Origin: an uncultured Planctomycetales bacterium | Lineage (GTDB): Bacteria > Omnitrophota > Gorgyraeia > Zapsychrales > Fredricksoniimonadaceae | Direction: 5' to 3' | DNA length: 64,000 nucleotides | Assembly (NCBI GenBank): GCA_964483785.1 | Contig: CAZACW010000002.1 | Span: 16,666-80,665 of the forward strand | In this document: piece by piece, positions 21,072 to 37,239 of the stretch | Numbering within the stretch: position 1 is the first letter of the stretch | Layout of the letters: the number at the start of each line of letters is the position of its first letter | The notes under the pieces: generated by a model | What the model was told of the DNA's origin: nothing | What the model saw: only the letters and a program-made list of their open reading frames with translations | Databases searched by the model: none | Translations under genes and position numbers: made by a program

Positions 21072-21084
21072 GTCAACATAGGTT

Positions 21085-21141: not shown

Positions 21142-21212
21142 TCACATATTCTTGCATTCCTTGAAGAATAGGGAATATGTCGAACAAGCAACAGTTTCTC
21201 AAGGAGGTTGAG

Positions 21213-21875: not shown

Positions 21876-21884
21876 GAGGAGATT

Positions 21885-22922
21885 ATGAAAGCAGCGATTT
21901 TAGCGGAATTGAACAAACCCCTGGTGCTGGCGGACATTGCCCTGCCGCAGCGGCTGGCTTTCGGCCAGGTCCGGGTGAAAATTTTTTACAGCGGCATCTG
22001 CGGGGCCCAGCTCAATGAGATCGAGGGGGCCAAGGGCCCGGACAAATTCCTGCCGCATCTCTTGGGCCACGAAGGCTCAGGGACCGTCGTGGACGTGGGG
22101 CCGGGCGTCAAGACGGTCAAGAAGGACGATCATGTGGTCCTGCACTGGCGCCCCAGCAACGGCATCCAGTCCGAGACGCCCGCCTATGACTGGCAGGGCC
22201 GCAAGGTCAACGCGGGCTGGGTCACCACCTTCAACGAAGAGGCCGTGATTTCCGAAAACCGCCTGACACCTATTCCTAAGGACTTTGATCTGCGCTTAGC
22301 ACCCCTGTTCGGCTGTGCGGTGACCACGGCCATGGGCGTTGTCAATAATGACGCGCGCCTCAAGATCGGACAGTCCGTCGTGATTTTTGGCGCCGGCGGG
22401 GTGGGGCTGAACATCGTGCAGGCCGCGGCCATGGTTTCAGCCCATCCCATCGTGGCCATTGATCTGTTCGATGAAAAATTGGACATGGCCAAAAAATTCG
22501 GCGCCACCCATGTGCTGAATTCCAAAAAAACGCCTGGGGTGGCTTCCTGGGTCGCGCAGTACATCCCCAAGGGCCTGGCGGACGTGGTGATCTACACCAC
22601 CGGCAATGCCCGCGTGATCGAGCTGGCCTATGAGCTCACCCATCCCGACGGGAAGACCATCCTGGTGGGCGTGCCGCTCAAGGGGGAAAATATTTCCATT
22701 TATTCCCTGCCCCTGCATTTTAACAAGGTGCTCAAAGGCTCGCACGGCGGCAGCAGCGAACCTCATTTGGACATTCCGCGCTATGTGGCCCTGTGCCAGT
22801 CAGGGAAGATGACCCTGGAAGGCCTGGTGACGGATGAATTTCCCTTGTCCAAGATCAATGAGGCCCTGGATAAGGTGCGCAGCGGCCAGAGCGGGCGGGT
22901 GATCATCAATATGAAGGCCTGA
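21885..22922 (+). CDS. Zinc-dependent alcohol/polyol dehydrogenase (MDR family)
   Basis: GHEGSG zinc-ligand motif and the GAGGVG Rossmann motif. Confidence 0.8.
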   Translation: MKAAILAELNKPLVLADIALPQRLAFGQVRVKIFYSGICGAQLNEIEGAKGPDKFLPHLLGHEGSGTVVDVGPGVKTVKKDDHVVLHWRPSNGIQSETPAYDWQGRKVNAGWVTTFNEEAVISENRLTPIPKDFDLRLAPLFGCAVTTAMGVVNNDARLKIGQSVVIFGAGGVGLNIVQAAAMVSAHPIVAIDLFDEKLDMAKKFGATHVLNSKKTPGVASWVAQYIPKGLADVVIYTTGNARVIELAYELTHPDGKTILVGVPLKGENISIYSLPLHFNKVLKGSHGGSSEPHLDIPRYVALCQSGKMTLEGLVTDEFPLSKINEALDKVRSGQSGRVIINMKA

Positions 22923-22935
22923 CAAAGAACACAAG

Positions 22936-24054
22936 ATGAAAACCGAACAAGTCCAACACAAAATGCATGTACGCTTTCGGGACCTGGGCATCAAAGACCC
23001 TGGGCTTACAAAAGAATTACTGCAGGCTGTTGAGCAGGTCCTGACCCACGGACGTTTTATTCTGGGGCCGGAAGTGGAAATTTTTGAAAACCAGATCGCG
23101 GCCTGGTGCCAGCGCAAATACGCGGTGGGCATGAATTCAGGGACAGATGCGCTTTACCTGGCCCTGCGGGCCTTGGGGATCGGCCCAGGGGATGAAGTGA
23201 TCACAACGCCTTTGTCCTGGATCGCCACTGTGAATGCCATTGTCCTGACCGGCGCCACACCGGTTTTTGTGGATATTGCCGAAGACCTAAACATCGACGC
23301 CGGTCTGATTGAAGAAGCGGTCACGCCCAAAACAAAGGCGATTGTGCCGGTGCATTTCACCGGCAGGATCTGCGATATGCCGCGTATTATGGGCATTGCC
23401 AAACGCCGCAAGCTCTATGTTGTGGAAGACGCGGCCCAGGCCTTTGGGGCCAGCATTCCGGAAGGGCCGGCAGGTTCGTTCGGGGACATCAGTTGTTTCA
23501 GCATCAATCCCATGAAGGTCTTGTGCGCCTACGGCGAGGCCGGGGCTGTGGTGACGGACGACGCGCAATTAAGGGACAAGCTTTCTTCCTTGCGTTACGC
23601 GGGGACGGTCAACCGGGAAGACTGCCATATGCCAAGCTTAAACGGCCGCATCGATACCATCCAGGCAGCCATGATTTCCATTAACCTGAAATATTTAAAA
23701 GACAAGATCAAACGGCGCCAGGACATAGCGCGGCGTTACGATGCCGCGCTTCAAAAGACGGTCATCTGCCCTGCGCCTTCCCCAGGCTGTCACATTTATT
23801 ATTCCTACAGCATTTTGAGCGGGCGCCGTGATGAACTTAAGCAGTACCTGCAAAACCACGGCATTGAAACCAAGATCCAGCACCCGATCCTGATGCCGTA
23901 TCACACGGCGTACCGGGGGAAATTTCCGGCGAAGATCCCGGCGGCTGAGCGCCTGGTGCAGAAATTGCTGTGTCTGCCCAATGATGAGGGCTTGTCCAAT
24001 GCGCAGGTTGATTATGTCATTGACCGCATCCAGGAATTCTATAAGGTGAATTGA
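22936..24054 (+). CDS. DegT/DnrJ/EryC1/StrS-family sugar aminotransferase (third paralogue)
   Basis: GIGPGDEVITT motif and the family architecture. The product is 372 aa. Confidence 0.85.
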   Translation: MKTEQVQHKMHVRFRDLGIKDPGLTKELLQAVEQVLTHGRFILGPEVEIFENQIAAWCQRKYAVGMNSGTDALYLALRALGIGPGDEVITTPLSWIATVNAIVLTGATPVFVDIAEDLNIDAGLIEEAVTPKTKAIVPVHFTGRICDMPRIMGIAKRRKLYVVEDAAQAFGASIPEGPAGSFGDISCFSINPMKVLCAYGEAGAVVTDDAQLRDKLSSLRYAGTVNREDCHMPSLNGRIDTIQAAMISINLKYLKDKIKRRQDIARRYDAALQKTVICPAPSPGCHIYYSYSILSGRRDELKQYLQNHGIETKIQHPILMPYHTAYRGKFPAKIPAAERLVQKLLCLPNDEGLSNAQVDYVIDRIQEFYKVN

Positions 24055-24585
24055 ATGAAGATCAAGCCGTTTAACGAAGAGGTGTTTTACACCGACGAGG
24101 AAGTGACCAAGGTCAACCAGCAGGACGTGGCCTGGCTTAAAAGCAAGGCCCTGGCCAATCCGCGCCGCCGGGCGCGGCTCTGCGCCCATCCCGGCATCCA
24201 GGATGTCTTGCATGAGATGCTGATCGTCCATGTCCGGGACGCCTATGTCCAGCCGCACAAGCACCCTCACAAAAGCGAGTCCTTTCACATCATCGAAGGC
24301 CGCTTGAAGGTCGTTATTTTCAGCGAGTCCGGCAAGATCACGGAAATCATCGAGATGGGTGAGTATCTTTCGGGCCTGCGTTTCTATTACCGTCTGGCCC
24401 GCGGCCTTTTTCATACCGTTGTCCCTGCCTCCGAGACCGTGGTTTATCATGAAGTCACCAACGGCCCGTTTGACAGGGCAGACACCGTGTTTGCCGGCTG
24501 GGCGCCGGCGGAAAATGAAATCCAGGCCCAGGCCGGATTTTTGAAGGATTTAAAGCAGAAAGCAACGATGGGAGCAAACGTATGA
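24055..24585 (+). CDS. WbuC-family cupin-fold metalloprotein
   Basis: The N-terminal pattern SKALANPRRRARLCAHP...HEMLIVH..YVQPHKH matches the WbuC signature. Confidence 0.7.
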   Translation: MKIKPFNEEVFYTDEEVTKVNQQDVAWLKSKALANPRRRARLCAHPGIQDVLHEMLIVHVRDAYVQPHKHPHKSESFHIIEGRLKVVIFSESGKITEIIEMGEYLSGLRFYYRLARGLFHTVVPASETVVYHEVTNGPFDRADTVFAGWAPAENEIQAQAGFLKDLKQKATMGANV

Positions 24586-25835
24586 GCCAAGCCTATAAAC
24601 GCAGCACCTGCCGCCTGTGCGGCAAGCATGATTTTGAGAAAGTCCTGGAATTGACCCCCACGCCGCCGGCGGATGAATATGTTGCTAAAGAGCGGCTGAA
24701 CAAAATCCAGAAAACCTATCCCATTGACCTTTATCTCTGCCGTTCTTGCGGGGTCACCCAGCTTTTGGATGTGATCGATACCGACGAGGTGTACCTGAAT
24801 TATACCTATGAAACGGTGAGCTCCTTCGGCCTGGTCAAGCATTTTGAAGACTATGCCAGAGAAGTGATGGACAAATTCAAGCCGAAATTAGGCGGCCTGG
24901 TCCTGGATATCGGCAGCAACGACGGGTCTTTGTTGAAATATTTCAAGGACTTAGGGATGAAAATCCTCGGCATTGACCCTACACCTTCGATCGTCCAAAA
25001 AGCCAATGCCAACGGGATCCCGACCCTCGAAGCTTTTTTCAGCGAGGCCTATGCCCATCAGTTCAAGAAGGAGCACGGCAGCGCGGCGGTGATCACCTGC
25101 AACAACCTGGTTGCGGACATTGACAATTTAATGGATTTGATCAAAGGGGTCCGCGCCTTGATGGCCCCGGATTCCATTTTCGTTTTTGAAAGTTTTTATC
25201 TGGTGGACCAAATCCAGAACTTAGTCTGGGATTTTACCTATCACGAGCATTTTTCTTATTTTACGGTCAAGCCCCTGCAGTCCTTTTTCGCGGCCCAGGG
25301 CATGGAATTGATCGATGCCCAGCGCGTGTGGACCAAGGGCGGGTCAGTGCGCTATACCATCCAGCTTAAAGGCGGCCCCCGCAAGGCCTTGCCCAGCGTC
25401 GAAGAGTTGATTCAATATGAAGCCGGCATCGGCGCCCAAACGCCGGAGATTTTCAAAGAGTATAGGCAGAGGATTGAAAAGGCCAAACAGGAGCTGACTG
25501 CTCTGCTTAAGGACCTTAAAGCCAGGAAGAAAACCTTTGCCGGGTTCGGGGCCTCGGCCACGTCCACGACCTTGATCCACCACTATGATTTGGGGGACAA
25601 GATTGATTTCATCGCCGATGATTTCAAGGCCAAACAGAACCTTTTCAGCCCGGGTTTCCATATCCCGGTCTATCATCCGGACGAGATCTACAAAAGAAAA
25701 CCCGATTACATCATCATGCTGGCCTGGCGGTATTACGAGCCGATCATGAAAAACCACCAGCGTTATTTAGAGGACGGGGGCCAGTTTATCATCCCCTTGC
25801 CACGGCTTAAGGTCATATCCAAGGAGACAAAATGA
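24582..25835 (+). CDS. Sugar C-methyltransferase (TylC3/NovU-like) with an N-terminal zinc ribbon
   Basis: CRLCG...CRSCG zinc-binding pairs are followed by a SAM methyltransferase core (VLDIGSNDG) and a C-methyltransferase C-terminal region. Confidence 0.7.
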   Translation: MSQAYKRSTCRLCGKHDFEKVLELTPTPPADEYVAKERLNKIQKTYPIDLYLCRSCGVTQLLDVIDTDEVYLNYTYETVSSFGLVKHFEDYAREVMDKFKPKLGGLVLDIGSNDGSLLKYFKDLGMKILGIDPTPSIVQKANANGIPTLEAFFSEAYAHQFKKEHGSAAVITCNNLVADIDNLMDLIKGVRALMAPDSIFVFESFYLVDQIQNLVWDFTYHEHFSYFTVKPLQSFFAAQGMELIDAQRVWTKGGSVRYTIQLKGGPRKALPSVEELIQYEAGIGAQTPEIFKEYRQRIEKAKQELTALLKDLKARKKTFAGFGASATSTTLIHHYDLGDKIDFIADDFKAKQNLFSPGFHIPVYHPDEIYKRKPDYIIMLAWRYYEPIMKNHQRYLEDGGQFIIPLPRLKVISKETK

Positions 25836-26836
25836 GCTTACCGAATAGACCCCTGCGGGGACAGGAGGCCGTCCGCTACCTCGAGCAAAAATTAAAGTTT
25901 TCGCATGAGGAGCTGACCGCCTATCCCAAGTACATCATGATCGAAACCGTCAATTTCTGCAACGCGGAATGCATCATGTGCGGGATCGATTTTGACAAGA
26001 AGGTCAAGTCCGTGATGAAGGACGAACTTTATAACAAAATTTTAAACGATATTGTCGAACATAAGGACCAGATCGAGAAGGTCATGCTGTATCTGGACTG
26101 CGAACCCCTTTTGGACAAGAAATTGCCCGGCCGCATCGCCCTGATGAAACAGGGGGGGGTCAAAAAAATCAACATTTCCACCAACGCCGCCCTGCTGGAT
26201 GAGAAAAGGGGGACAGCCATCATCAACGCGGGCCTGGATGAGATCTACATCAACCTGGATTCCCTGCACAAGGACAGGTTTGAGGCCATCCGCAAGGGGC
26301 TGAAATTCGAGGAGGTGCACCAGAATATCCTCAATTTTATCCCGTTAAGGAACCGGCTTAACCCTAATATGGTGATCCGCATCCAGATGATTTTGCAGGA
26401 GATGAATGCCGACGAGGGGGACGCCTGCCTCGCGTATTGGAAACCGAAATTAAACCCTCAGGACCAGATCATCGTGCAAAAGGCCCATAACTGGGCGCGT
26501 TTTGTCAACACCAAGAGTTTCGGGGATGAATTCACCATCAACAATATCCCCTGCATCGGGCCTTTCGGGACTTTTTGCATCCATGTGGACGGGACTGTGG
26601 GGCTGTGCAGCATGGACACCGAGCCCAAGGGGGCCACAGGCGAGGGCATCGGCAGTGTCGCCGAGAAAACGATCGCACAGGTCTGGACAGGTGAGCCGGT
26701 CCAAAGGGTGAGGCAGGTCCATATCGCGGGCGAGCGCTGCGGGATTAAATTATGCGACGGCTGCACCTTGTGGCGGGAGGACAAGCATATCCTCGAGGAC
26801 ATTGTCAAGCCGCAAAGCTTGTGCCAACAGCCTTAA
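25832..26836 (+). CDS. Radical-SAM enzyme with a C-terminal SPASM/twitch cysteine-rich domain
   Basis: The CNAECIMC motif is a CxxxCxxC cluster. Additional Cys clusters follow near the C-terminus (CIGPFGTFCIH...CSMD...CGIKLCDGC). Confidence 0.7.
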   Translation: MSLPNRPLRGQEAVRYLEQKLKFSHEELTAYPKYIMIETVNFCNAECIMCGIDFDKKVKSVMKDELYNKILNDIVEHKDQIEKVMLYLDCEPLLDKKLPGRIALMKQGGVKKINISTNAALLDEKRGTAIINAGLDEIYINLDSLHKDRFEAIRKGLKFEEVHQNILNFIPLRNRLNPNMVIRIQMILQEMNADEGDACLAYWKPKLNPQDQIIVQKAHNWARFVNTKSFGDEFTINNIPCIGPFGTFCIHVDGTVGLCSMDTEPKGATGEGIGSVAEKTIAQVWTGEPVQRVRQVHIAGERCGIKLCDGCTLWREDKHILEDIVKPQSLCQQP

Positions 26837-26841
26837 AAAAT

Positions 26842-27645
26842 ATGATGAACAAAGAACATGTGCTGATGATCGGCGCCAGTAAGGGCAGCGGGCGCATCAG
26901 CGCGCAAACGCTGGCCCAGGCAGGTTATCAGGTGTCTGTGATCAGCCGCAGGCCGCCGCAGGAAAAAATCGACGGTGCCCGGCATTGGTCTGCGGACATC
27001 ACCAAGCCCGCCCTTTTTGCGGAAACGCTTGAGGCCATTGTCCGCCAGGCAGGGCCGTTGCATCATCTGATTTTTTGCCATCAATTCAGGGGCGAAGGCG
27101 ATGCCTGGGCAGGGCAGATTGAAACCAGTTTGACCGCAGTCAAGCGCGTGATCGAATCTGCCGTGGATCATTTCGCGCCGGCCAGGGGCGGCAGTACCAT
27201 TGTCATCGTCAGCTCCATCTGCGGCCGCTTGATCGCCGTGGAACAGCCGGTGGGCTATCATGTGGCCAAGGCAGGATTGGAACAGATGGTGCGCTATTAC
27301 GCCATGGCCCTGGGCCGCAAAGGGATCAGGGTCAATGCCGTTGCCCCGAACTCGGTGTTGAAGGCGGAAAACCGGGATTTTTACAAGCGCAACAAGGAAC
27401 TTTATGATCTGTACGCTAAAATCCTGCCCTTGGGCAGGATGGTGAGTTCGGAAGATGTGGCGGGCGCGATCGCCTTTTTGTGCGGCCCCCCGTCGAGCGG
27501 CATCACCGGCCAGACCCTGGTCATCGACGGAGGGATGTCCCTGCAGGACCATGAGGGCATGGCGCGATCGCTTATGTCCTTAGACCAAATCCAGCTGACT
27601 AAAAAAAACCATAAACCTGTGCATGCCGCGGCCGATGAAAAATAA
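26842..27645 (+). CDS. Short-chain dehydrogenase/reductase (classical SDR)
   Basis: Glycine-rich MIGASKGSG motif and a YxxxK region (YHVAKAG). Confidence 0.7.
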   Translation: MMNKEHVLMIGASKGSGRISAQTLAQAGYQVSVISRRPPQEKIDGARHWSADITKPALFAETLEAIVRQAGPLHHLIFCHQFRGEGDAWAGQIETSLTAVKRVIESAVDHFAPARGGSTIVIVSSICGRLIAVEQPVGYHVAKAGLEQMVRYYAMALGRKGIRVNAVAPNSVLKAENRDFYKRNKELYDLYAKILPLGRMVSSEDVAGAIAFLCGPPSSGITGQTLVIDGGMSLQDHEGMARSLMSLDQIQLTKKNHKPVHAAADEK

Positions 27646-28819
27646 ATTAATGCCCATCCTGGAATACTATCAAAGCCGGCAGATCAATCCGGTGCCTATC
27701 GGCATTGAAGATCCCAAAACATGGGAAACCCATTGCATCAGGCGCCAAAATCTTTATGAGAGGCATTTGAAAATTCCTATTCCGATGTTCCGCGGCCGTT
27801 CGGTGATCGAGTTCGGGTGCAATTCCGGCGAGAATGCTTTATACCTGGCCTCCGCAGGCGCCCTGCTGACCCTGGTGGAGCCCAATGAGCAGGTGCTGCC
27901 GCGTTTGCGCGCTTTATTCGAGCGTTTTCATCTGCAGGGGCAGATCAAGGCCCTGGCTGCCACGGACATCGCGGCCTTCAAGCCGCAGGAACAATACGAT
28001 ATCATGCTCGCCGAAGGTTTTCTGACCATGATCCCTGACCGCGGCCGGATGTTGTTGAAAATCTGCTCCCTGCTTAAGCCCGGAGGTTTCGGCGTGATTT
28101 CCTTCGATGACCGCTACGGAGAGATGTTTGAGATCATCCGGCAGACGGTGTTTCGCCGGGTCTGCCGCGCCAGAGGCCTTGCTGACCTGCATAGCGCAGA
28201 GGCTCTGGCCGCGGCCAAGGAATTATTCGAAGAGGATTTCACCCGGATCAACAGCTCCCGGCCGTTTAAGGCCTGGTGGCAGGATGTGCTTTTGAATCCC
28301 TATGTGTCGTGGGAACATCTGGGGACCTATCATGAATTTGTAGCCTTGCTGCAGGAGGCCGGCTGTGAAGTCCATGCCACCTCGCCGCTTTGGTCCCAGA
28401 TGGACCATGGCTCCTGGTATAAAAATGTGGCGGGCCCTCAGGAAAGGCATCACCGGTTTTTGGAGGATTTTTATAAGGCCTTTCCTTTTTTGCTGACCGG
28501 CCTGCCTTTTTTGGCTGAGCGCATGGAGCCGGCCAAGCCGCAGGAAGTGGAGGCTGTTTCGGATTTCATCAAGGCCCTTTCCGCTTATAATTTTGCGGAC
28601 AGTCCATTTGAGTCCATCGCTTATCCGCCGTTGATGGACCGGTATTTTGCCTCAAGCCCATGCGCGGAATTGAAAAAATTGAATACAGAAATCAAGGCCC
28701 TGCTGTCTTTGTTGGGCCGTGACCCTCAGGCGGCCATCGGCTTTTACAAGCAGACGGAATTTTTGCAACGCGCATGGGGCATGGCCGGCCCCTATATCAG
28801 TTTTAAAAAACTCACATGA
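27623..28819 (+). CDS. Class I SAM-dependent methyltransferase
   Basis: VIEFGCNSGENA motif. Alternative ATG starts lie at 27635 and 27641. Confidence 0.6.
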   Translation: MPRPMKNKLMPILEYYQSRQINPVPIGIEDPKTWETHCIRRQNLYERHLKIPIPMFRGRSVIEFGCNSGENALYLASAGALLTLVEPNEQVLPRLRALFERFHLQGQIKALAATDIAAFKPQEQYDIMLAEGFLTMIPDRGRMLLKICSLLKPGGFGVISFDDRYGEMFEIIRQTVFRRVCRARGLADLHSAEALAAAKELFEEDFTRINSSRPFKAWWQDVLLNPYVSWEHLGTYHEFVALLQEAGCEVHATSPLWSQMDHGSWYKNVAGPQERHHRFLEDFYKAFPFLLTGLPFLAERMEPAKPQEVEAVSDFIKALSAYNFADSPFESIAYPPLMDRYFASSPCAELKKLNTEIKALLSLLGRDPQAAIGFYKQTEFLQRAWGMAGPYISFKKLT

Positions 28820-30282
28820 ACACGACCCAGGTCCAGGAGAAGAAAATAAGCTCGGCAGCCCCGCTGAAATTTTCCGATATCAAGGAACCGGATCTTTTTG
28901 CCCTGGTTTTTTATAAGGGCGGCGGCACCAAGCTTTTTCACAGTTATCTCGATTCCCATCCGGAAATCTACAATATCCCGGCCTTTCCCTTGCTGTATTT
29001 TTATCCGCACTGGAGGCAATGGCAGGAACAATACCAGGAAGTCTGGGACTGGGAGACCATCATCCATATTTTCTGCCTCAAGCACGCTTCGGTGATCAAT
29101 TCCAGCAAGATCCCGGGCTTAAGCGGTTTGGCGGGCCTGGGCGAAGGCCAAAACGAGAACATCGCCATCGACGGGGAGGAGTTCCGGCGCCATCTCAAAA
29201 ATCTTCTGCGCGAAGAGCCGGTGCGCCGCAGGACCTTTTTATTGTCCGTCTTTTACGCCTACGCGCTGTGCAAGGGCGAGGACCTCACCACCAAGAAGGC
29301 CATGCTGTGGCACCATCACATGATCCCTTACCTGGAAGATTTCCTGAGCGATTTTCCCGACGCCAAGATCATGGGGATGATCAGGGACCCCAGGATCAAG
29401 ATCTACTCCATGGTCCAGCAGGACATCAAGACCGACCTGATCAAGCTCAGCCTCACCGATGCCATGATTTACCGCTCGAACGTGTTTTACCAGCAGATCA
29501 AGGTCCTTTTGATAACGACCCTGCATTTCTTGCGCCTCAAGGTCCCGGGCGGGGTTTATTTTGTGCGGCATGAGGACTTGGCCTCAGACCTTTCCCGGGT
29601 GATGAAAAGGGTGGCGGATCTGACCGGCATCAAGTTCCAGGATTCCATGCTGGAATGCACCTTCGACGGGAAATTATGGTGGGGGCATGAGATCCATGCC
29701 ATGCCCAAGGTGGGGCAGGCCGCCTCCGACGCTGAAAGGGCCAAGAAAATGTCGCAGGAGGCCTTAAAGAGGGTGCTCTCAACCTCCTGGCAGAAACAAA
29801 AGCCCGGCTGGGAAATTTTTGTCCTGGAAGGGCTGGACTATGATTTTCTCAAAGAATACGGCTATACGCCGCTGTATTACAAACAGGACACCTGGGGGGA
29901 AAGGCTGGCGCTGTGTGCCGCGGTCTGGGTCCCTTTTAGGATGGAGATCGAAGACACCTGGTTTTATTTAAACCCGGCCAACCATATCAAACTCATTACC
30001 GCGGCCTGGCAGGAAGCGACGGGCACTCTCAAGCGCAAATATTACGGCTTTAGCGCCACGTATCTTTTCAAGCACAGTTATAAGGCCTTTCATCTATGGA
30101 ACAAGCCGTGGCTCGTTCAAAAAATAGAGCGGGTCCCGGTGCTTAATGTCATCTACACCTATTTGCGCTTTTGGCTGGCCATCTGTCTTTTGCCTTTGCT
30201 GTATCTGCGGCGCATCGCCCTGTTTTATTACATTTTTTTCCGCCGCCTTTTCAAGGGGTCTTTCCTGGCCGCACAAATTTAA
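28816..30282 (+). CDS. Sulfotransferase-family protein with a C-terminal hydrophobic tail
   Basis: YKGGGTKLF is a 5'-phosphosulfate-binding K-x-G-T-like motif and MIRDPRIKIYS is a 3'-phosphate-binding RDP motif. The last about 60 aa are hydrophobic. Confidence 0.6.
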   Translation: MNTTQVQEKKISSAAPLKFSDIKEPDLFALVFYKGGGTKLFHSYLDSHPEIYNIPAFPLLYFYPHWRQWQEQYQEVWDWETIIHIFCLKHASVINSSKIPGLSGLAGLGEGQNENIAIDGEEFRRHLKNLLREEPVRRRTFLLSVFYAYALCKGEDLTTKKAMLWHHHMIPYLEDFLSDFPDAKIMGMIRDPRIKIYSMVQQDIKTDLIKLSLTDAMIYRSNVFYQQIKVLLITTLHFLRLKVPGGVYFVRHEDLASDLSRVMKRVADLTGIKFQDSMLECTFDGKLWWGHEIHAMPKVGQAASDAERAKKMSQEALKRVLSTSWQKQKPGWEIFVLEGLDYDFLKEYGYTPLYYKQDTWGERLALCAAVWVPFRMEIEDTWFYLNPANHIKLITAAWQEATGTLKRKYYGFSATYLFKHSYKAFHLWNKPWLVQKIERVPVLNVIYTYLRFWLAICLLPLLYLRRIALFYYIFFRRLFKGSFLAAQI

Positions 30283-30300
30283 AACGCAGGGAGGTAAGGT

Positions 30301-30816
30301 TTGATCCAGCGCAACATGACCTTATGGCTGACCGGACGTCCTTGTTCCGGCAAAACCAGCATATCGAAACAGCTGAAAATGGAATTGGCCAGCCGCGGGA
30401 TCCACGCGGTCTGCATGGACGGAGACGCGGTGCGCCATGGCTTAAACAAGGACCTGGGCTTCTCGCCCCAAGACCGTCAGGAAAATCTGCGGCGCGTGGC
30501 CCATGTCTGCGAACTTTTTAACGCCAACGGGATTTTTGTCATCGCCGCCTTTGTCTCGCCGACCAATGATTTGAGGGAGATGGTCAGGGGCCTCATCACC
30601 CATTTTAAATTGTGCTATGTGTCCTGCCCTTTGGAAGCGGCGGAGGCGCGGGATGTCAAAGGCATGTATAAAAAAGCCCGCTTGGGCATCATCAAAGAAT
30701 TCACCGGCATTTCGGCGCCGTTCGAAGAGCCGGGCCATCCCGAGATCGTGGTGGAATCCAGCCAAGCAACAGCCGCTGAATGCGTCAAGCGGATCATGGA
30801 CAAACTCGAGCAATGA
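30301..30816 (+). CDS. cysC: Adenylyl-sulfate (APS) kinase
   Basis: P-loop LTGRPCSGKTS plus APS-kinase core motifs. The product is 171 aa with a TTG start. An SD-like GGGAGG lies 8 nt upstream. Confidence 0.85.
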   Translation: MIQRNMTLWLTGRPCSGKTSISKQLKMELASRGIHAVCMDGDAVRHGLNKDLGFSPQDRQENLRRVAHVCELFNANGIFVIAAFVSPTNDLREMVRGLITHFKLCYVSCPLEAAEARDVKGMYKKARLGIIKEFTGISAPFEEPGHPEIVVESSQATAAECVKRIMDKLEQ

Positions 30817-31613
30817 CCATGGCCTTAAAACAGGGATCGGAGTTATTGATGGAGGCGCTGGCCGTAAGCAAGCAGGCTGGTGAGGCCATTCTCGGCATTT
30901 ATGACAAGGGATTTGAGACATCCTTCAAGGACGATCAATCGCCCTTGACCTCGGCAGACACAGCCTCCCATGCGGTGATCCTGCGCGGGTTGCGGGCCTT
31001 GACGCCGGAGCTTCCTGTTTTTTCGGAAGAATCAGAATCCATCGCGTATGCAACCAGGCGGCTATGGAAGGAATACTGGCTGGTGGACCCGCTCGACGGC
31101 ACCAAGGAATTCATCAAGCGAAACGGAGAATTCACCGTCAATATCGCCTTGATCAGGGAGTGCCGGCCGGTACTTGGGGTGGTTTATGCCCCGGCATTGG
31201 GAGTCGCGTATTTTGCCCGGCAGGGTCAGGGGGCTTTTAAGCAGGGCAAGTCCGGAGAAATCAGCCCAATCGCCGTTGACCAAGACACGGGCCGGGGATT
31301 GAACATAGTGGCCAGCCGTTCCCATCAGGGCCAGGAAGATGCGTTTTTAAAACGATTGGGCGCCCACACTTGTTTGAACATGGGCTCATCGCTGAAATTT
31401 TGCCTGGTGGCTGAGGGCCGGGCCCATCTTTATCCGCGTTTTTTACCCACCAGCGAGTGGGACACGGCCGCGGCCCAGTGTGTCGCCGAGGAAGCAGGCG
31501 CGGCGGTCACGGATTTGCAGGGACAGAGGCTTTTGTATAACAAAGAAAATCTGCTCAATCCTTTTTTTGTGGCCAGTAGTTTGCCCAAGGAGCAATGGAT
31601 GCAGGCCCTATGA
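30813..31613 (+). CDS. cysQ: 3'(2'),5'-bisphosphate nucleotidase (PAP phosphatase)
   Basis: Inositol-monophosphatase-fold motifs WLVDPLDGTKEF and the C-terminal EWDTAAAQ. The ATGA start overlaps the cysC stop. Confidence 0.8.
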   Translation: MTMALKQGSELLMEALAVSKQAGEAILGIYDKGFETSFKDDQSPLTSADTASHAVILRGLRALTPELPVFSEESESIAYATRRLWKEYWLVDPLDGTKEFIKRNGEFTVNIALIRECRPVLGVVYAPALGVAYFARQGQGAFKQGKSGEISPIAVDQDTGRGLNIVASRSHQGQEDAFLKRLGAHTCLNMGSSLKFCLVAEGRAHLYPRFLPTSEWDTAAAQCVAEEAGAAVTDLQGQRLLYNKENLLNPFFVASSLPKEQWMQAL

Positions 31614-32917
31614 AAGATTCCGGAATCCAACAACACTCGGCCCTGGCAACCCGCGAGAATGTCTGGGAGAATATCCGTTCAGGGAAAAAGCTCCATTTAG
31701 CCGAGATCATCAGCAGGCAATGGAAACAGATTCAGCAGGGAGGGGTTGGTGTCTGGTGCAAGAAATTTTGGATGATGCTGATGGTCGTGCTGGCCCTGCC
31801 CGTGGCCTTGATCATCCGTCTGGTCAGGCCCTTTATCCTTATCCGTTTTGGGGACCTTAATGCCACCCGTCTGGGGCATTTTGCCACGAACACGGCCCTG
31901 TATACGGCCTATCGTCATTGTTCACGCTCAAATACACTCGACATCTTCTATTATACGACGCCGATTTCCAATCATCAGATGAAGAAGATGTGGGACAGGA
32001 CCCTGCTCATCTGCCCCCTGGCCCGCTGGTGGGAAAAAGCCAATATGGTCCTTCCTGGAGCCAAGGCCCATATCATCAGAGAACATTTGGACGGCAGGGA
32101 TGCCCGGGGAGTTTATGAAAAGTCCCCCATCCCGGTCTCCTTTAGCGCCGATGAAGAAAAGCAGGCGCAGGAAGCCCTTGGCCGCTTAGGCCTGCCTAAG
32201 GGAGCTTTTTTTGTCTGCTTTCATGCCCGCAGCCCGGTTTACCTTGATAAATATCTGCCCCAATTCGACCACCGCTACCATGATTTCCGGGATTCAGATA
32301 TCATGACTTATCAAATGGCTGTCCAGGAACTGATACGTCGAGGGTATTATTGCATCCGCATGGGGATGAATGAACCGGACCCGTTTCCCCTTCAAGACCC
32401 CAAACTGATCGATTATGCGATTTTAGGCCGGGATGAATTATTGGACATCTATCTGCCGGCCAAATGCCATTTCTTTTTAGGGACAGCCTGCGGGCTGACC
32501 TCCATTCCCCGCCTGTTCAAGAGGCCGATTGCCTGGGTCAATTATATTCCTTTAAGTCTGGCACACAGCTGGGACAGCCGATCCTATTTCATCCCTAAAA
32601 AAATTTGGTTAAAGTCAGAGAAAAGATTCTTGAATTTCAAGGAAATGCTCTCTCCTCCCTGGAGTAATGAACGGGTGAACATCAATTTTGAGGAAGCGGG
32701 GATTGAACCTGTCAACAATACGCCGCAAGAGATTGCTGACCTGGCCAGGGAAGTCGAGGAGCGATTAGGCGGCCGCTGGAAGGCCTCTTCTCAAGACGAG
32801 GCCATGCAGGAGAAATTTTGGTCCCTTTTTCGTAAGGACCGCATTTATCACGATGTGATCAGGGCCAGGATCGGCACCCAATTTTTGCGGGACCATCAAC
32901 ACTTGCTGGAGGCTTAA
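31595..32917 (+). CDS. Hypothetical protein, possibly a TIGR04372-type surface-carbohydrate glycosyltransferase
   Basis: A 440-aa soluble-looking protein with one N-terminal hydrophobic segment. Only its position in the glycan locus supports the call. An alternative start lies at 31610. Confidence 0.3.
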   Translation: MDAGPMKDSGIQQHSALATRENVWENIRSGKKLHLAEIISRQWKQIQQGGVGVWCKKFWMMLMVVLALPVALIIRLVRPFILIRFGDLNATRLGHFATNTALYTAYRHCSRSNTLDIFYYTTPISNHQMKKMWDRTLLICPLARWWEKANMVLPGAKAHIIREHLDGRDARGVYEKSPIPVSFSADEEKQAQEALGRLGLPKGAFFVCFHARSPVYLDKYLPQFDHRYHDFRDSDIMTYQMAVQELIRRGYYCIRMGMNEPDPFPLQDPKLIDYAILGRDELLDIYLPAKCHFFLGTACGLTSIPRLFKRPIAWVNYIPLSLAHSWDSRSYFIPKKIWLKSEKRFLNFKEMLSPPWSNERVNINFEEAGIEPVNNTPQEIADLAREVEERLGGRWKASSQDEAMQEKFWSLFRKDRIYHDVIRARIGTQFLRDHQHLLEA

Positions 32918-32929: not shown

Positions 32930-34702
32930 ATGAAAGTTTTTCAATTTAGCAAAGAATTATTTGCCAAATACCCCAGGTATTGCCTTATCAGCATTGCCTT
33001 AAACGTCGCCCTCAGTTTTTTTGCGGTCTGCTCCTTGTTCAGCCTCGGACCTATTGTTGACCTTTATATCCATCCCGACCGATTGTCCCAGCTGAGCCCC
33101 TTGACCCAGAAGGTCATTCATGTGATGGGCTTTTTCCATATGCCTGTAAACCTGAAAAGTTGGCTGTTTGTATTTATGGCCTTTGTCACGGTCAGCTGCG
33201 TTTTCCAGGTTTTAGGCTGGCAATCCGTCCTGGCCTTGAAATATACCGTCCAAAAAGACATTATCCTGGGCTCGTTTGAAGATTTTTTCAATGCCAGGTG
33301 GCCTTTTTTCAGCAGCAGCGAGCACGGCACCCTGTACAACACTTTTTATCGGGAACTTAATCAATTGGGCAATGCCTTCAGCGCCATGGGGCAGGCCTTT
33401 GCCGGGATCGTGCAGGTGGTCATCCTCTTAGTCGTTCCGTTTTTGATTTCATGGCAGGTCACGCTGTTGTCCTTAAGCGCGGGGCTGGCTTTTTCCTCGG
33501 TTTTTTTGTTGATCGGCTCATGGGCCTATAGGCTGGGTAAAAAAAATACGGAGGTCTCCAACAGGCTGACGGCCCTGATCCATGAGAGCATCAGCGGGGC
33601 CAAGCTGGTCTTGGGATACAGCAATCAAAAACGCCTGCTCGCCGATACCCAGGAAGCCTACCAGGCCATTGTCAGGCCGGCCATTGAGACACAGGTCTTG
33701 AATTATGCCATTGTCATCGCTTACCGGCCTTTGGGGGTGGTCGTCGTGGTTGTGGCGATCATCGCTTCCAGTTTTTTTGCCGTTCCTATTTCGGACATTG
33801 CGGTCCTGTTTTTGGCCTTGTTTCAGGTGATGATCTCTTTGGGCAATGTGATGGGACAAAAAAACACCATCATGAACCTGATCCCCAGTTACGAACAGAT
33901 CATGAGGCTTAGAATGAAAGCGCAGAGCATGCGCCAGCCTACCGGGGAAAGGCCATTCACCGGTCTGCATGTGGACATTCAGATGAGGGATATCTCCTTT
34001 TCCCATCCCGGGCACCCCAAGGTTTTGGACGGGATCCAGGTGACCATTCCCAAGGGCCGGATGATCGCCTTTGTCGGCAAATCCGGGGCTGGAAAGTCGA
34101 CCTTGATTGACATGCTGATGGGCTTTTATCAACCTGAATCCGGGGGGATATGGGTGGACGGGATCAACCTGTTTGACCTTGACATAGCTACCTACCGCCG
34201 CAGGCTCGGCTATGTTCCCCAGGAGAGCCAGTTGTTTGACATGAGTATCAGGGACAATTTAAGATGGGTTTCTCCTCAGGCCAGCCGCCAGGACATTGAA
34301 AATGCCTGCCGCCAGGCGTATGCCCATGAATTCATTGAAAAGATGCCCCAACACTATGATACCGTTGTCGGGAACAGAGGTGTCCGCCTTTCCGGCGGCC
34401 AGATCCAGCGCCTGGCTTTGGCCAGGGCCTTTTTGCGCAATCCGGATATCCTTATTTTGGATGAGGCCACCAGTTCTTTGGACAGCCATTCCGAACAATT
34501 GATCCAGAGGGCGATTGAGAATTTCGCGCAACAATCGACGGTGGTCATCGTGGCCCACCGGCTCACCACGATCAAAAAGGCGGATTTGATTTATGTCCTG
34601 CATGAGGGCAGGGTGATCGAACAGGGCGGCTACAATGACCTGGCGGAGCAAAACGGCATGTTCGCGGGCATGGTCCAATTGCAGGAATTGGGGTTGAATT
34701 GA
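32930..34702 (+). CDS. ABC exporter, fused permease plus ATPase (MsbA/lipid-linked-glycan exporter type)
   Basis: Six-transmembrane-helix N-terminal half, then Walker A (GKSGAGKST), the ABC signature (LSGGQIQR) and Walker B (ILILDEAT). Confidence 0.9.
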   Translation: MKVFQFSKELFAKYPRYCLISIALNVALSFFAVCSLFSLGPIVDLYIHPDRLSQLSPLTQKVIHVMGFFHMPVNLKSWLFVFMAFVTVSCVFQVLGWQSVLALKYTVQKDIILGSFEDFFNARWPFFSSSEHGTLYNTFYRELNQLGNAFSAMGQAFAGIVQVVILLVVPFLISWQVTLLSLSAGLAFSSVFLLIGSWAYRLGKKNTEVSNRLTALIHESISGAKLVLGYSNQKRLLADTQEAYQAIVRPAIETQVLNYAIVIAYRPLGVVVVVVAIIASSFFAVPISDIAVLFLALFQVMISLGNVMGQKNTIMNLIPSYEQIMRLRMKAQSMRQPTGERPFTGLHVDIQMRDISFSHPGHPKVLDGIQVTIPKGRMIAFVGKSGAGKSTLIDMLMGFYQPESGGIWVDGINLFDLDIATYRRRLGYVPQESQLFDMSIRDNLRWVSPQASRQDIENACRQAYAHEFIEKMPQHYDTVVGNRGVRLSGGQIQRLALARAFLRNPDILILDEATSSLDSHSEQLIQRAIENFAQQSTVVIVAHRLTTIKKADLIYVLHEGRVIEQGGYNDLAEQNGMFAGMVQLQELGLN

Positions 34703-34728
34703 TATGCATTCGAGCGTAAGGAGTGAAG

Positions 34729-35706
34729 ATGCGTAAGGTCCTGATTACAGGGGCGGGGGGTTTTATCGGTTCGCATTTGACGGAACTCTGCGTGAAGCAG
34801 GGGGTCAAGGTGCGCGCCATGGTCCATTACAACGCGAAGAACCATTGGGGCTGGCTCGAGGATTCCCCGGTCAAAAACAAGATCGAGGTCGTCTGCGGCG
34901 ATGTGCGGGACTATGATTTTGTCTTTAATCAGCTTAAAGGCTGCGACACGGTCTTTCACCTGGCGGCCTTGATCGGCATTCCGTATTCCTATATTTCTCC
35001 CATGGCCTATATCAAGACCAACGTGGAAGGGACCTATAATGTCCTTCAAGCGGGCAAGGACAGGGGCACCAAGAATTTGGTCCTCACCTCGACGAGCGAG
35101 ACCTACGGGAGCGCGCAATATGTGCCCATCGACGAGAAGCACCCGGCCAATGCCCAGTCCCCTTATGCGGCCACCAAGGTCGCGGCTGACCAGCTGGCCT
35201 TGAGTTTCCATCGTTCCTTCGGCCTTCCGGTCAAGATCGTGCGGCCTTTCAATACCTATGGCCCGCGCCAATCCGCCCGGGCCATCATTCCCACCGTGAT
35301 CACCCAGATCCTCAACGGCAAAAACACCCTGCACTTGGGCAATCTGGGTCCGAGCAGGGACCTGACCTTTGTAGAAGACACCGCCAAAGGTTTTTGGGCC
35401 GCGGCCAAGGCGCCCTGTGCCGGCGAGGTGCTCAATCTTGGGATGAATGAGGAAATCACGGTCGCTGAATTAAGCCGGTTGATCGCAGGGCTGATGCAAA
35501 CAAAGATCCGCATCCGGCAGGAGAGGGTCAGGGTGCGCGCCTCTTCCAGCGAGGTCAGCCGGCTGCGCTGTGATAACCGCAAGATGAGAAGCCTTACGGG
35601 CTGGAAGCCGCAGTTCAGCCTGGAACAAGGCCTGCGCAAAACCATTGAATGGTTTAAAAAGCCCGGGACATTGTCCCTTTATAAGGCGGAATTGTATAAT
35701 GTCTAA
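34729..35706 (+). CDS. NAD-dependent nucleotide-sugar epimerase/dehydratase (extended SDR)
   Basis: ITGAGGFIGSH motif and a YAATK catalytic region. An SD (AGGAG) lies 5 nt upstream. Confidence 0.8.
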   Translation: MRKVLITGAGGFIGSHLTELCVKQGVKVRAMVHYNAKNHWGWLEDSPVKNKIEVVCGDVRDYDFVFNQLKGCDTVFHLAALIGIPYSYISPMAYIKTNVEGTYNVLQAGKDRGTKNLVLTSTSETYGSAQYVPIDEKHPANAQSPYAATKVAADQLALSFHRSFGLPVKIVRPFNTYGPRQSARAIIPTVITQILNGKNTLHLGNLGPSRDLTFVEDTAKGFWAAAKAPCAGEVLNLGMNEEITVAELSRLIAGLMQTKIRIRQERVRVRASSSEVSRLRCDNRKMRSLTGWKPQFSLEQGLRKTIEWFKKPGTLSLYKAELYNV

Positions 35707-36841
35707 ACCCATTGAAATGGATGCCCCTTGTCTGGGGGAGGCCGAGAAGAAATATCTGAGTAAGGCCATTGATTCCGGCTTTGTTTCGTCGGCCGGCCCT
35801 TTTGTCCCTGAATTTGAAGCCAAGGTGGCGGCCTTTTTAAAGGTCTCCTCAGCCGTGGCCCTGCAAAGCGGCACAGCCGCGATCCACATGGCCCTGGTGG
35901 CCGCAGGCATCGGACCAGGGGACGAGGTGATTGTGCCTTCCTTGACTTTCGCGGCGACCGTCAATCCCATTTTATATGTGGGCGCGGTGCCGGTGATCGT
36001 GGATGTTGATCCCGCGACATGGAATATCGATCCTGTCAAAATCAAGGCGGCCCTGACTAAAAAGACCCAGGCCATCATCCCAGTGCATGTCTACGGCAAT
36101 CCCTGCGCCATGGATGAAATCATGGGCCTGGCGGCCCGGCACGGGTTTGCCGTCATCGAAGATGCAACGGAAAGCCTGGGCGCGGAATTTTTGGGAAAAC
36201 CCGCCGGCACCTTCGGTGATTTCGGCTGTTTGAGTTTTAATGGCAATAAAACCATCACCACCGGGGGAGGCGGCATGCTCGTCGGACAAGAGACCCAGCG
36301 CCTGGAACATGTCCGTTACCTGGCCAATCAGGCCAAGGACAAGGTCCAGCCGGGCTTTCATGCGGAAATGGGATTTAATTACCGCATGACCAACATCGAA
36401 GCGGCCTTGGGCCTGGCCCAATGCGGGAACATCGAGGCTTTTCTGGCCCGAAAAAGGAATTTCAGAAAAATCTATGAAAAGGCCCTGTTGCCCGTCAAAG
36501 GGGTAGGTTTCCAGGATAAACTGGACAATGCTGAGCCAAGCTGCTGGCTGACCTGCCTGCGTCTGCCTCAAGCGGTTCCATTAGGCCCCTTGATGGAGGC
36601 CTTACGGCAGAAGCATATCCCCACCAGAAGGGTGTTCATGCCTTTGCCTCAGATGCCTTATTTGAAGACATATGCCAAGGAATGTCCCCAGGCACAGGAC
36701 ATTTTTGAACATGGCCTTTGCCTGCCGTCTTCAACCATGAACACAGAAAAAGATATTGAGCAGGCGGCTGAAATTATCCGAAAGGTGATTGAAACATGCC
36801 TTCCCCATGGGTCCCCTTGCGTTTCAACAAAAACAATTTGA
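35699..36841 (+). CDS. DegT-family sugar aminotransferase (fourth paralogue, LegC/PglE/PseC-like)
   Basis: GIGPGDEVIVPSLTF motif and a GNKTITTGGGG region. Its start overlaps the epimerase stop. Confidence 0.85.
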   Translation: MSKPIEMDAPCLGEAEKKYLSKAIDSGFVSSAGPFVPEFEAKVAAFLKVSSAVALQSGTAAIHMALVAAGIGPGDEVIVPSLTFAATVNPILYVGAVPVIVDVDPATWNIDPVKIKAALTKKTQAIIPVHVYGNPCAMDEIMGLAARHGFAVIEDATESLGAEFLGKPAGTFGDFGCLSFNGNKTITTGGGGMLVGQETQRLEHVRYLANQAKDKVQPGFHAEMGFNYRMTNIEAALGLAQCGNIEAFLARKRNFRKIYEKALLPVKGVGFQDKLDNAEPSCWLTCLRLPQAVPLGPLMEALRQKHIPTRRVFMPLPQMPYLKTYAKECPQAQDIFEHGLCLPSSTMNTEKDIEQAAEIIRKVIETCLPHGSPCVSTKTI

Positions 36842-37239
36842 CCAAGTGGATGTGGATGTGCCAGCATCACGAGCATTTGGTCTGCGGCCGCAAGGTGGAC
36901 ATAGGCGCCTTCACCTATATCAATGCCAAGCACGGGGTGCATTTGGGGGATGAGGTGCAAATCGGGTCTCACTGTTCCTTGTATTCCGTCTCATCTATCG
37001 ACGGCAAGAAGGGGCCCATTACAATCGGCAAAAATTCCAGGATCGGGTCGCACTGCACCGTGATGCCGGGGATCACCATCGGGGACAATGCGGTCATCGG
37101 CGCCCATTCCTTTGTGAATAAAGACATCCCCTCCAATGCAACCGCATGGGGCGTGCCGGCCAGGGTCCAAAATAAAAAGCAGGGCAAGGCCAAGAACCGT
37201 GACGGACGGCACAAAGCCAAGGACCGTGAAAGAGACTGA
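36796..37239 (+). CDS. Hexapeptide-repeat (left-handed beta-helix) sugar N-acetyltransferase (PglD/LegH-like)
   Basis: Tandem [LIV]G-x-x-x-x hexapeptide repeats (IGSHCSL...IGKNSRIGSHCTV...IGDNAVIGAHS). The start codon is uncertain between 36796 and 36853. Confidence 0.65.
   Translation: MPSPWVPLRFNKNNLTKWMWMCQHHEHLVCGRKVDIGAFTYINAKHGVHLGDEVQIGSHCSLYSVSSIDGKKGPITIGKNSRIGSHCTVMPGITIGDNAVIGAHSFVNKDIPSNATAWGVPARVQNKKQGKAKNRDGRHKAKDRERD

Follow-up and report, generated by a model that had tools for sequence, protein, structure and literature searches.

Positions 28816-31613 of the stretch of Omnitrophota DNA analyzed here (contig CAZACW010000002.1, 64,000 nt; the whole stretch is called the window, and coordinates refer to positions within it) hold three open reading frames (ORFs) on the plus strand, which encode a sulfotransferase, the adenylyl-sulfate (APS) kinase CysC, and the nucleotidase CysQ. 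This 2.8-kb unit probably belongs, as an accessory sulfation cassette, to a large operon for surface-glycan biosynthesis, mediating the sulfation of a membrane-bound glycan intermediate that depends on 3'-phosphoadenosine-5'-phosphosulfate (PAPS). A preliminary description of this DNA had proposed a dedicated unit for making PAPS and recycling 3'-phosphoadenosine-5'-phosphate (PAP) within a glycan gene array, with a sulfated sugar as the predicted product. Protein families and fold support that proposal, as do the structure of the operon and, most strongly, the comparison with related loci. The genes and features discussed first are as follows, where GA is the Pfam gathering cut-off and AF2 denotes AlphaFold 2.

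27623..28819, plus strand: S-adenosylmethionine (SAM)-dependent methyltransferase, here MT_b, 398 aa, upstream edge of the cassette slot (Pfam Methyltransf_23/12/11/25)
28816..30282, plus strand: sulfotransferase, 488 aa (Pfam PF13469 and PF00685 above GA; AF2/Foldseek fold)
28915..28932, plus strand: KGGGTK, putative 5'-phosphosulfate-binding (5'-PSB), P-loop-like motif, aa 34-39 (G37 and K39 invariant; aligns with PRSGTT of TPST1)
29383..29394, plus strand: RDPR, putative 3'-phosphate-binding (3'-PB) region, aa 190-193 (R190 invariant, R193 nearly invariant)
30136..30279, plus strand: C-terminal tail of the sulfotransferase, aa 441-488, probable membrane anchor (hydropathy, AF2 helices)
30290..30294, plus strand: GGAGG ribosome-binding site, 6 nt 5' of the cysC TTG start (read from the sequence)
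30301..30816, plus strand: stand-alone APS kinase CysC, 171 aa, TTG start (TIGR00455, NF003013, Pfam APS_kinase)
30813..31613, plus strand: 3'(2'),5'-bisphosphate nucleotidase CysQ, 266 aa (TIGR01331, Pfam Inositol_P)
31610..32917, plus strand: TIGR04372-family glycosyltransferase, 435 aa, GT-B fold with an N-terminal transmembrane helix (TIGR04372, AF2, Foldseek)
32930..34702, plus strand: ABC exporter with fused transmembrane and nucleotide-binding domains, MsbA/HepA/PglK-like, 590 aa (Pfam ABC_membrane and ABC_tran)

The cassette genes are tightly coupled to each other and to their neighbors. An ATGA overlap joins the MT_b stop codon to the sulfotransferase start (28816-28819), a second joins cysC to cysQ (30813), and a third joins cysQ to the glycosyltransferase gene (31610); only the second had been pointed out previously. 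The gap between the sulfotransferase gene and cysC is 18 nt and contains the ribosome-binding site. Overlaps at both ends of the cassette and within it thus chain five genes translationally, and spacers between genes of the whole array are mostly ≤20 nt. A consensus scan for internal promoters and terminators yielded, for promoters, just weak intragenic matches at background level. The GC content of the cassette (0.540) equals that of the cluster (0.542) and GC3 is similar. Neither value hints that the cassette was acquired recently from a foreign source, a possibility that was considered and rejected as unsupported.

The identity of the first gene product as a sulfotransferase-fold protein, suggested earlier along with its KGGGTK and RDPR motifs and hydrophobic tail, was borne out by profile and structure comparisons. 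The protein matched Pfam Sulfotransfer_3 (PF13469) with 35.6 bits (GA 27) over aa 37-276 and Sulfotransfer_1 (PF00685) with 30.1 bits (GA 22), and no NCBIfam model matched its 488 residues in a profile scan. A profile search of the PDB retrieved TPST1 (E 3.9e-7), together with the CurM sulfotransferase domain (ST) and TPST2. The AF2 model (pLDDT 88.6, pTM 0.87) agrees: in a Foldseek search of the PDB, every named match to rank 42 was a PAPS sulfotransferase, including TPST1/2, CurM and OLS ST, Stf9, Stf1, 3-OST, and SULTs, with TPST2 (3ap3, E 3.9e-5) at the top. The PAPS-sulfotransferase fold occupies approximately aa 20-290 and is followed by a family-specific helical extension (~300-430) and a hydrophobic/basic two-helix tail. 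The best profile and structural matches, TPST1/2 and CurM/OLS ST (PDB 5wrj, 3ap3, 4gbm, 4gox), share the Gly-Thr of the 5'-PSB motif and the 3'-PB Arg with the window protein. They are only 15-18% identical to it, however, have Arg or Lys at position 2 of the PSB motif where the window family has Gly, lack the extra C-terminal domain and membrane tail, and act on different acceptors.

A database search recovered 28 full-length relatives of the sulfotransferase (31-55% identity, 460-520 aa), all from metagenomes or metagenome-assembled genomes (MAGs). When the search was made exhaustive with a profile, 4,359 representatives matched at E ≤ 1e-3, of which 1,410 reached E ≤ 1e-10 and 285 reached E ≤ 1e-30. 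The family is therefore sizeable yet uncharacterized. In an alignment of 26 sequences, the invariant positions include G37 and K39 (GGGTK), H166 and H168 (WHHH), D179, R190 (RDPR), E253 (RHEDL), K286, and W289, and the C-terminal extension of ~200 aa is conserved. Compared with PRSGTT of TPST1, the GGGTK element keeps the Gly-Thr pair, and the position of the catalytic Arg/Lys is Gly in the family consensus (NGGGTK); the invariant K39 lies two residues past G37, directly after the Thr. R190, invariant in 26 of the 26 sequences, aligns with the Arg of VRDGR in TPST1. Some distant family members (P0285, P0326, P0332, P0341, and P0366) are fusions with TPR arrays, a second sulfotransferase domain, a HAD hydrolase, or a family 2 glycosyltransferase (GT2).

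The last 48 residues of the sulfotransferase are rich in aromatic, aliphatic, and Arg residues. Their Kyte-Doolittle 19-residue mean (KD19) peaks at 1.82 at aa 452-470, and the AF2 model places two helices here (441-457 and 459-480, pLDDT ~96). The tail is a probable membrane anchor, although it may be interfacial rather than membrane-spanning, because only 8 of the 26 family members exceed the transmembrane-like threshold (KD19 > 1.6). No N-terminal signal or transmembrane segment was found in the protein, and the catalytic domain is therefore expected to lie in the cytoplasm, where PAPS is located.

CysC and CysQ were assigned with high scores, in keeping with the stand-alone APS kinase and CysQ-type phosphatase of the preliminary description. 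CysC scored 195.7 bits against TIGR00455 apsK (cut-off 138.7), 186.5 bits against NF003013 (cut-off 163), and 183.7 bits against Pfam APS_kinase, and its translation contains the P-loop GRPCSGKT and the motifs DGDAVRHGL..DLGFS..DR.EN.RR, AAFVSP, and KKARLG..FTGI. It is ~42% identical to Escherichia coli CysC. CysQ scored 302.4 bits against TIGR01331 (cut-off 228.8) and 165.3 bits against Pfam Inositol_P, and carries the metal-binding motifs of the inositol-monophosphatase family (DPLDGT and WDTAA). These scores, set against curated cut-offs, and the associated E-values put the profile matches far beyond chance.

The association of this sulfotransferase family with sulfate activation and glycosyl transfer was explored by mapping all window proteins with tblastn onto 22 other loci that contain a sulfotransferase homolog (contigs and loci compared with the window have labels such as L002). 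These loci represent at least eight lineages; their MAGs are labeled Planctomycetales, Rhodospirillales, Bacteriovoracaceae, Terriglobia, Anaerolineales, Dehalococcoidia, Magnetococcales, Piscirickettsiaceae, and Omnitrophota. The most constant neighbor of the sulfotransferase is the TIGR04372 glycosyltransferase, which adjoins it or lies within ~3 kb in 15 loci. Sulfate-activation genes lie near the sulfotransferase homolog in 11 of the ~16 other loci with usable flanks (12 of ~17 including the window), and the loci that have them span Planctomycetales, Rhodospirillales, Anaerolineales, Magnetococcales, Omnitrophota, and others.

The sulfate-activation genes take several forms. In L002, L003/L004/L006, L013, and L019, a pyruvate-kinase (PK) barrel is fused N-terminally to PUA_2 and ATP-sulfurylase (Sat) domains in proteins of 730-738 aa, the Sat part of which exceeds the TIGR00339 cut-off (359.9 > 322.95). 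This fusion is found within ~9 kb of the sulfotransferase homolog, with no CysC within 10 kb; the two genes are direct neighbors in L003, and a single gene separates them in L002. In L010 and L017, a stand-alone PK barrel (337-397 aa) lies directly beside an APS kinase. The positions are:

L003, 11546-13762: PK-Sat fusion
L002, 12721-14913: PK-Sat fusion
L013, 19143-21200: PK-Sat fusion
L019, 15698-17842: PK-Sat fusion
L010, 11563-12576 and 12579-13148: stand-alone PK barrel and APS kinase
L017, 4416-5609 and 3831-4379, both minus strand: stand-alone PK barrel and APS kinase

Apparent short Sat proteins in L010 and L017, suggested by tblastn matches covering 44% of the Sat fusion, were discarded after Pfam analysis identified them as these stand-alone PK barrels and not as sulfurylases. 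The PK catalytic motifs of the barrel proteins look intact by eye, and no PK-barrel gene of this sort is present in the window. The PK barrel may regenerate ATP for sulfate activation; a literature search for natural fusions of pyruvate kinase and ATP sulfurylase returned just coupled-assay papers. APS kinases without a PK barrel occur in L012, L016, L022, L023, and L024, and in these loci, as in L010 and L017, the APS kinase is 0-10 kb from the sulfotransferase. In two Omnitrophota-type loci (L022, 12957-13979; L023, 13032-13943), an AICARFT/IMPCHase gene (PurH-like, 303-340 aa) sits between the sulfotransferase and APS kinase genes and neighbors an AsnB-like amidotransferase and an aldehyde dehydrogenase.

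The CysC proteins of the other sulfotransferase loci score 120-149 bits on apsK, and the window copy is the most canonical. Because they are only 27-34% identical to the window CysC, which nevertheless scores higher on the apsK model, these kinases may have been recruited separately to the same need in different loci. The substrate of the window CysC is most simply taken to be APS, a reading favored by the genuine Sat domains encoded beside homologous sulfotransferases.

Comparison with clusters lacking the three genes defines the limits of the cassette. The nearest homologs of the window glycosyltransferase reside in syntenic clusters without sulfotransferase, CysC, or CysQ (L027, L025, and L026). 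In L027 (8799-13033; Omnitrophota MAG GCA_042567115.1), the order is DegT, cupin, radical-SAM/SPASM enzyme, and, farther on, MT_b, glycosyltransferase, ABC exporter, LegB, LegC, PglD, NeuB, NeuC, NTP-transferase, and NeuA. The MT_b ortholog directly abuts the TIGR04372 glycosyltransferase in L027 and L025, and the L026 cluster is similar and also without the trio. In L024 (8151-12932), by contrast, the same slot is filled in another order, MT_b, CysC, sulfotransferase, and glycosyltransferase, with no CysQ. The clusters without the trio and the occupied slot of L024 together delimit 28816-31613 as an accessory cassette in a conserved slot.

The adjacent glycosyltransferase scored 217.5 bits against TIGR04372 (cut-off 45), and its AF2 model (pLDDT 87.9) adopts a GT-B fold. 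The best PDB folds found by Foldseek were the GT9 heptosyltransferases 3tov, TibC, WaaF, and WaaC (E 1e-4 to 6e-3), and the window cluster also encodes an HldE-like kinase/nucleotidyltransferase. The protein nevertheless differs from GT9 enzymes in its low identity (~10%, structural TM-score 0.3-0.5), the lack of a match to Pfam Glyco_transf_9, and the added N-terminal transmembrane helix (KD19 2.48 at aa 54-72). A literature search for TIGR04372 returned nothing. The best NCBIfam match of the downstream ABC protein was HepA_fam_ABC (376.5 bits, below the model cut-off); orthologs are encoded in L002, L003, L025, L026, and L027, with partial matches (~40% of the query) in L013 and L019. This protein probably exports or flips a glycan intermediate.

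A mechanism that accommodates these observations would begin with APS from an ATP sulfurylase whose gene lies in another part of the genome. CysC would phosphorylate APS to PAPS, as its family assignment predicts. The sulfotransferase, which its C-terminal tail would anchor to the inner membrane on the cytoplasmic side, would then use PAPS to sulfate a sugar in a glycan intermediate bound to the membrane. Gene linkage suggests that this sugar is most probably one that the adjacent TIGR04372 GT-B glycosyltransferase adds, or else the product of that enzyme. CysQ, judging from its family assignment and the established role of CysQ, would hydrolyze PAP to AMP and Pi and so lift product inhibition, and the neighboring MsbA/HepA-like ABC exporter would carry the sulfated glycan outward. 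We infer the donor, the acceptor class, and the order of sulfation and export from these family assignments and gene arrangements.

Our best guess for the acceptor is a sugar handled by the TIGR04372 glycosyltransferase, possibly the one made by the HldE-like, transketolase, DegT, and cupin proteins of the cluster, because of the GT9-like fold and the frequent gene order DegT-cupin, sulfotransferase, glycosyltransferase in Anaerolineales and Omnitrophota loci. A legionaminic-acid-type sugar is a possible alternative, since NeuB and NeuC come after the glycosyltransferase in L002, L015, and L027. A rather doubtful but more specific proposal places the sulfate on a higher-carbon sugar, either the legionaminic-acid-type nonulosonic acid encoded downstream or a heptose-derived amino sugar made by the HldE-like/transketolase/DegT/cupin set, perhaps as an N-sulfate on the amine generated by DegT. 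We know of no description of a sulfated nonulosonic acid or of such a sulfated heptose-derived amino sugar in bacteria. Literature searches found just animal and archaeal cases of sulfated nonulosonic acids and sulfated flagellin glycans, and nothing relevant on sulfotransferases in Omnitrophota.

Several points weigh against an accessory glycan-sulfation cassette, the first concerning its supply of APS. Pfam scans of the window ORFs found no match to PUA_2, ATP sulfurylase, or CysD/N, no CysH, CysI, or CysJ, and no sulfate permease. With a genuine Sat as the tblastn query, the best match in the window and in L005 and L001, two contigs that overlap it, had E = 0.68, and no ATP sulfurylase or sulfate permease was present among the called genes ~6.5 kb past the right end (L005) or ~5 kb past the left end (L028). 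The lack of a sulfurylase in the window agrees with the preliminary description. That description had also called the module self-contained, which is overstated: with no ATP sulfurylase in the window or the nearest ~5-6 kb on either side, the unit is not fully self-contained, and APS supply to it is assumed. Other difficulties lie in the sulfotransferase and the sample. In this family, Gly takes the place of the canonical catalytic Lys/Arg in the 5'-PSB loop, the invariant Lys lies two residues farther on, and PAPS is a predicted donor. Among solved structures, the closest belong to sulfotransferases that act on protein tyrosine or polyketides and not to carbohydrate ones. A CysQ homolog was detected by tblastn in none of the 22 other loci, making the trio of sulfotransferase, CysC, and CysQ unique to the window within the sample. 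Finally, glycan sulfation in this uncultured host is a prediction from its genes.

Some of these points suggest other explanations. The acceptor might be a protein tyrosine, as for TPST or RaxST, or a hydroxylated lipid or acyl intermediate, as for CurM ST, with the sulfotransferase gene merely riding in a glycan operon. The closest solved relatives by profile and fold are indeed TPST1/2 and the CurM and OLS sulfotransferase domains, the hydrophobic tail would suit a lipid substrate too, and L024 contains a small PP-binding gene, resembling that of an acyl carrier protein, 3 kb upstream. This similarity is at the level of a common fold, however (TM-score ~0.3-0.5), and glycosyltransferase and sugar-nucleotide genes are linked to the sulfotransferase in essentially every locus across phyla, one relative from the broader family being fused to a GT2. 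ORF scans of the window revealed no precursor-peptide or polyketide synthase genes, and a non-sugar acceptor is considered improbable. Alternatively, cysC and cysQ could be housekeeping genes of assimilatory sulfur metabolism that reside in a sugar operon by chance, beside a sulfotransferase-like protein that is inactive or unrelated. Stand-alone cysC and cysQ are common as housekeeping genes, and a local ATP sulfurylase is missing. Against this, cysC and cysQ lie in the middle of a sugar operon, coupled translationally by stop/start overlaps between glycan genes, and not beside cysH or cysI; all three genes are jointly missing from the syntenic clusters; sulfate-activation genes recur beside sulfotransferase homologs of unrelated lineages; the window lacks cysH, cysI, and cysJ; and the sulfotransferase motif residues are invariant across the family. 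Chance residence is the least credible of the explanations considered. The situation that the preliminary description named as contrary to its proposal, a sulfotransferase failing profile searches and cysC and cysQ next to assimilatory cysH/cysI just outside the window, was not encountered.

A further alternative is that a group other than sulfate is moved from a 3'-phosphorylated nucleotide donor, on the model of the O-methyl-phosphoramidate (MeOPN) of Campylobacter jejuni. The glutamine kinase of that pathway, Cj1418, is of the phosphoenolpyruvate (PEP)-utilizing, pyruvate phosphate dikinase (PPDK)-like type. Pfam scans of the window ORFs found no PPDK or PEP-utilizer domain. Cj1415-Cj1418 make CDP-phosphoramidate 3'-phosphate, with the CysC homolog Cj1415 acting as the cytidine diphosphoramidate 3'-kinase (PMC11800397, citing Taylor and Raushel 2018). 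Genes resembling cysC in glycan clusters therefore need not encode APS kinases. The MeOPN system (Cj1415-Cj1418, Cj1421/1422) resembles the window in being an optional decoration cassette with a CysC-family kinase and a 3'-phosphorylated nucleotide donor analogous to PAPS (PMC11800397). The atypical 5'-PSB loop of the sulfotransferase family is compatible with another donor, and disposing of a 3',5'-bisphosphate by-product could equally be a task for a CysQ-type phosphatase. In contrast to C. jejuni, however, the window has no glutamine kinase, cytidylyltransferase, or hydrolase genes of this pathway, and its relatives have genuine ATP sulfurylase domains, above equivalog cut-offs, near the same sulfotransferase. 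Among the CysC proteins compared, that of the window is the most canonical (195.7 bits vs. the cut-off of 138.7), and the transferase itself exceeds the sulfotransferase Pfam thresholds. Transfer of a group other than sulfate is thus judged very improbable, and PAPS-dependent glycan sulfation is retained as the preferred explanation.

Enzyme sets dedicated to sulfate activation that work with a PAPS-dependent sulfotransferase on glycoconjugates of the cell surface or secreted ones are known from the rhizobial NodP/NodQ-NodH and mycobacterial CysDNC/Stf0/CysQ systems, in the latter of which CysQ removes PAP. These systems differ from the window in including an ATP sulfurylase and in their acceptors, which are lipochitooligosaccharide and trehalose, and their sulfotransferases are soluble, have a canonical 5'-PSB motif, and are without the ~200-aa C-terminal extension and tail. 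The preliminary description had regarded sulfated bacterial glycans as rare, with Nod factors and mycobacterial sulfolipids as the known examples, which overstates the rarity both of such glycans and of co-located PAPS genes. Sulfated glycoconjugates are reported to be common in the extracellular polymeric substances of granular sludge (PMC10483923), and the capsule cluster of Cobetia marina KMM 1449 encodes cysN/C, cysD, cysQ, a sulfate permease, and a sulfotransferase, with a proven sulfated product (Rha2S; PMC11766843). In Cobetia as in the window, genes for PAPS synthesis and PAP recycling, including cysQ, accompany a sulfotransferase gene within a surface polysaccharide cluster of the type that depends on an ABC transporter; the window product is predicted from its genes. 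Unlike the window, which has just CysC and CysQ, Cobetia has a CysDN sulfurylase and a permease. The exporter is KpsMT in Cobetia and a fused MsbA/HepA-like half-transporter in the window, the sulfotransferase families differ, and the Cobetia sugars are Rha and Man as opposed to the legionaminic-acid-type and heptose-like pathways of the window.

The placement of PAPS-supply genes beside a sulfotransferase for a surface or secreted glycoconjugate is accordingly an established principle, and the advance is incremental unless the acceptor is unusual. What is new is the host lineage; the uncharacterized sulfotransferase subfamily, which combines a variant PSB loop with the C-terminal extension and the tail; the constant pairing with TIGR04372; the cassette-like presence and absence; and the reduced gene set of CysC and CysQ without sulfurylase. 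It is predicted that some Omnitrophota, which are uncultured and often ultra-small, display a sulfated surface glycan and that this trait is switchable by a 2.8-kb cassette. The tie between an uncharacterized sulfotransferase family and the likewise uncharacterized TIGR04372 glycosyltransferases offers a starting point for assigning both. Sulfated glycans affect charge, the binding of metals, recognition by phages and predators, and the properties of biofilm matrices, and new carbohydrate sulfotransferases are wanted as biocatalysts. Interest would rise if the sulfated residue were a nonulosonic acid or an N-sulfated amino sugar.

From ~9.6 kb to the end of the window, nearly all genes are on the plus strand with tiny or negative spacers and concern sugar biosynthesis. 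The region 12275-24585 encodes an HldE-like kinase/nucleotidyltransferase, short-chain dehydrogenase/reductase (SDR) epimerases/dehydratases (two SDRs in the conserved set), a split transketolase, an APH-type kinase, a methyltransferase, a zinc-dependent alcohol dehydrogenase, DegT aminotransferases, and a DUF6016/WbuC cupin. The domain order of the HldE-like protein is reversed, the cytidylyltransferase-like domain preceding the PfkB kinase. This set probably makes an unusual higher-carbon amino sugar; it is conserved across phyla and in many loci accompanies the sulfotransferase and TIGR04372 glycosyltransferase. It is followed at 24582-28819 by genes for a C-methyltransferase, a radical-SAM/SPASM enzyme, an SDR, and MT_b.

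Downstream of the exporter, 34723-43269 and 47018-47734 contain genes of a legionaminic-acid-type nonulosonic acid pathway. The LegB-like protein (454 bits) falls just below its cut-off of 475 and the LegC-like protein scored 386 bits (cut-off 420), while NeuB (475 bits) and a hydrolyzing NeuC (441 bits) exceed theirs (399.65 and 235.9, respectively). This region also encodes a CBS-nucleotidyltransferase, a WbuX/HisH/HisF amidotransferase trio, and a CMP-sugar synthetase. The trio, which includes the sole class-I glutamine amidotransferase seen (41381-42064), suggests an acetamidino substituent. At 43462-44484, a 340-aa protein contains PF01973 (MptE-like/DUF115; Maf/PseD-like) and partially matches PseD (49.7 bits, cut-off 670), being much shorter than typical Maf proteins. 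A flagellin glycosylation island, considered on account of this protein, is at most a possibility, as a flagellin gene was not found in the window and the PseD match is partial.

Farther downstream are genes for B12-radical-SAM enzymes, a KdsB-like cytidylyltransferase, a SIS protein, and a transaldolase. At 56453-63445 and continuing in L005 (7022-14139), the genes bordering that of the KdsB-like CMP-ulosonic-acid synthetase (NF003952, 246.6 > 193) encode a class I/II aminotransferase and three GFO/IDH/MocA oxidoreductases. These are followed by a SIS isomerase, the transaldolase, a HAD phosphatase, SDRs, a second SIS protein, a 2-hydroxyacid dehydrogenase, a radical-SAM enzyme, and a GT2. 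This region may constitute a third sugar pathway, Kdo-like or octose-type.

Tailoring enzymes are unusually dense in the window, with two B12-binding radical-SAM enzymes, one radical-SAM/SPASM enzyme, and at least five SAM-dependent methyltransferases, including a sugar C-methyltransferase, encoded by the following ORFs.

10112-12274, 25832-26836, and 44497-46080: radical-SAM enzymes
21177-21875, 24582-25835, 27623-28819, 56453-57250, and 61016-62149: methyltransferases

Genes for methionine and SAM supply (metH and metF) are found upstream on the minus strand (3283-7874), although their nearness to the tailoring enzymes may be coincidental. The nearest named relatives of MetH (80, 77, and 69% identity) are all from Candidatus Omnitrophica/Omnitrophota MAGs. 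Five large ORFs (459-729 aa) without a significant Pfam domain (48516-50108 and 7874-9253, both minus strand; 50175-52364, 52386-54185, and 54757-56418) are candidates for novel glycosyltransferases or polymerases of the cluster. Only 52386-54185 among the five has any match, a weak one (69 bits, cut-off 250) to TIGR04326, a model named "surface carbohydrate biosynthesis protein".

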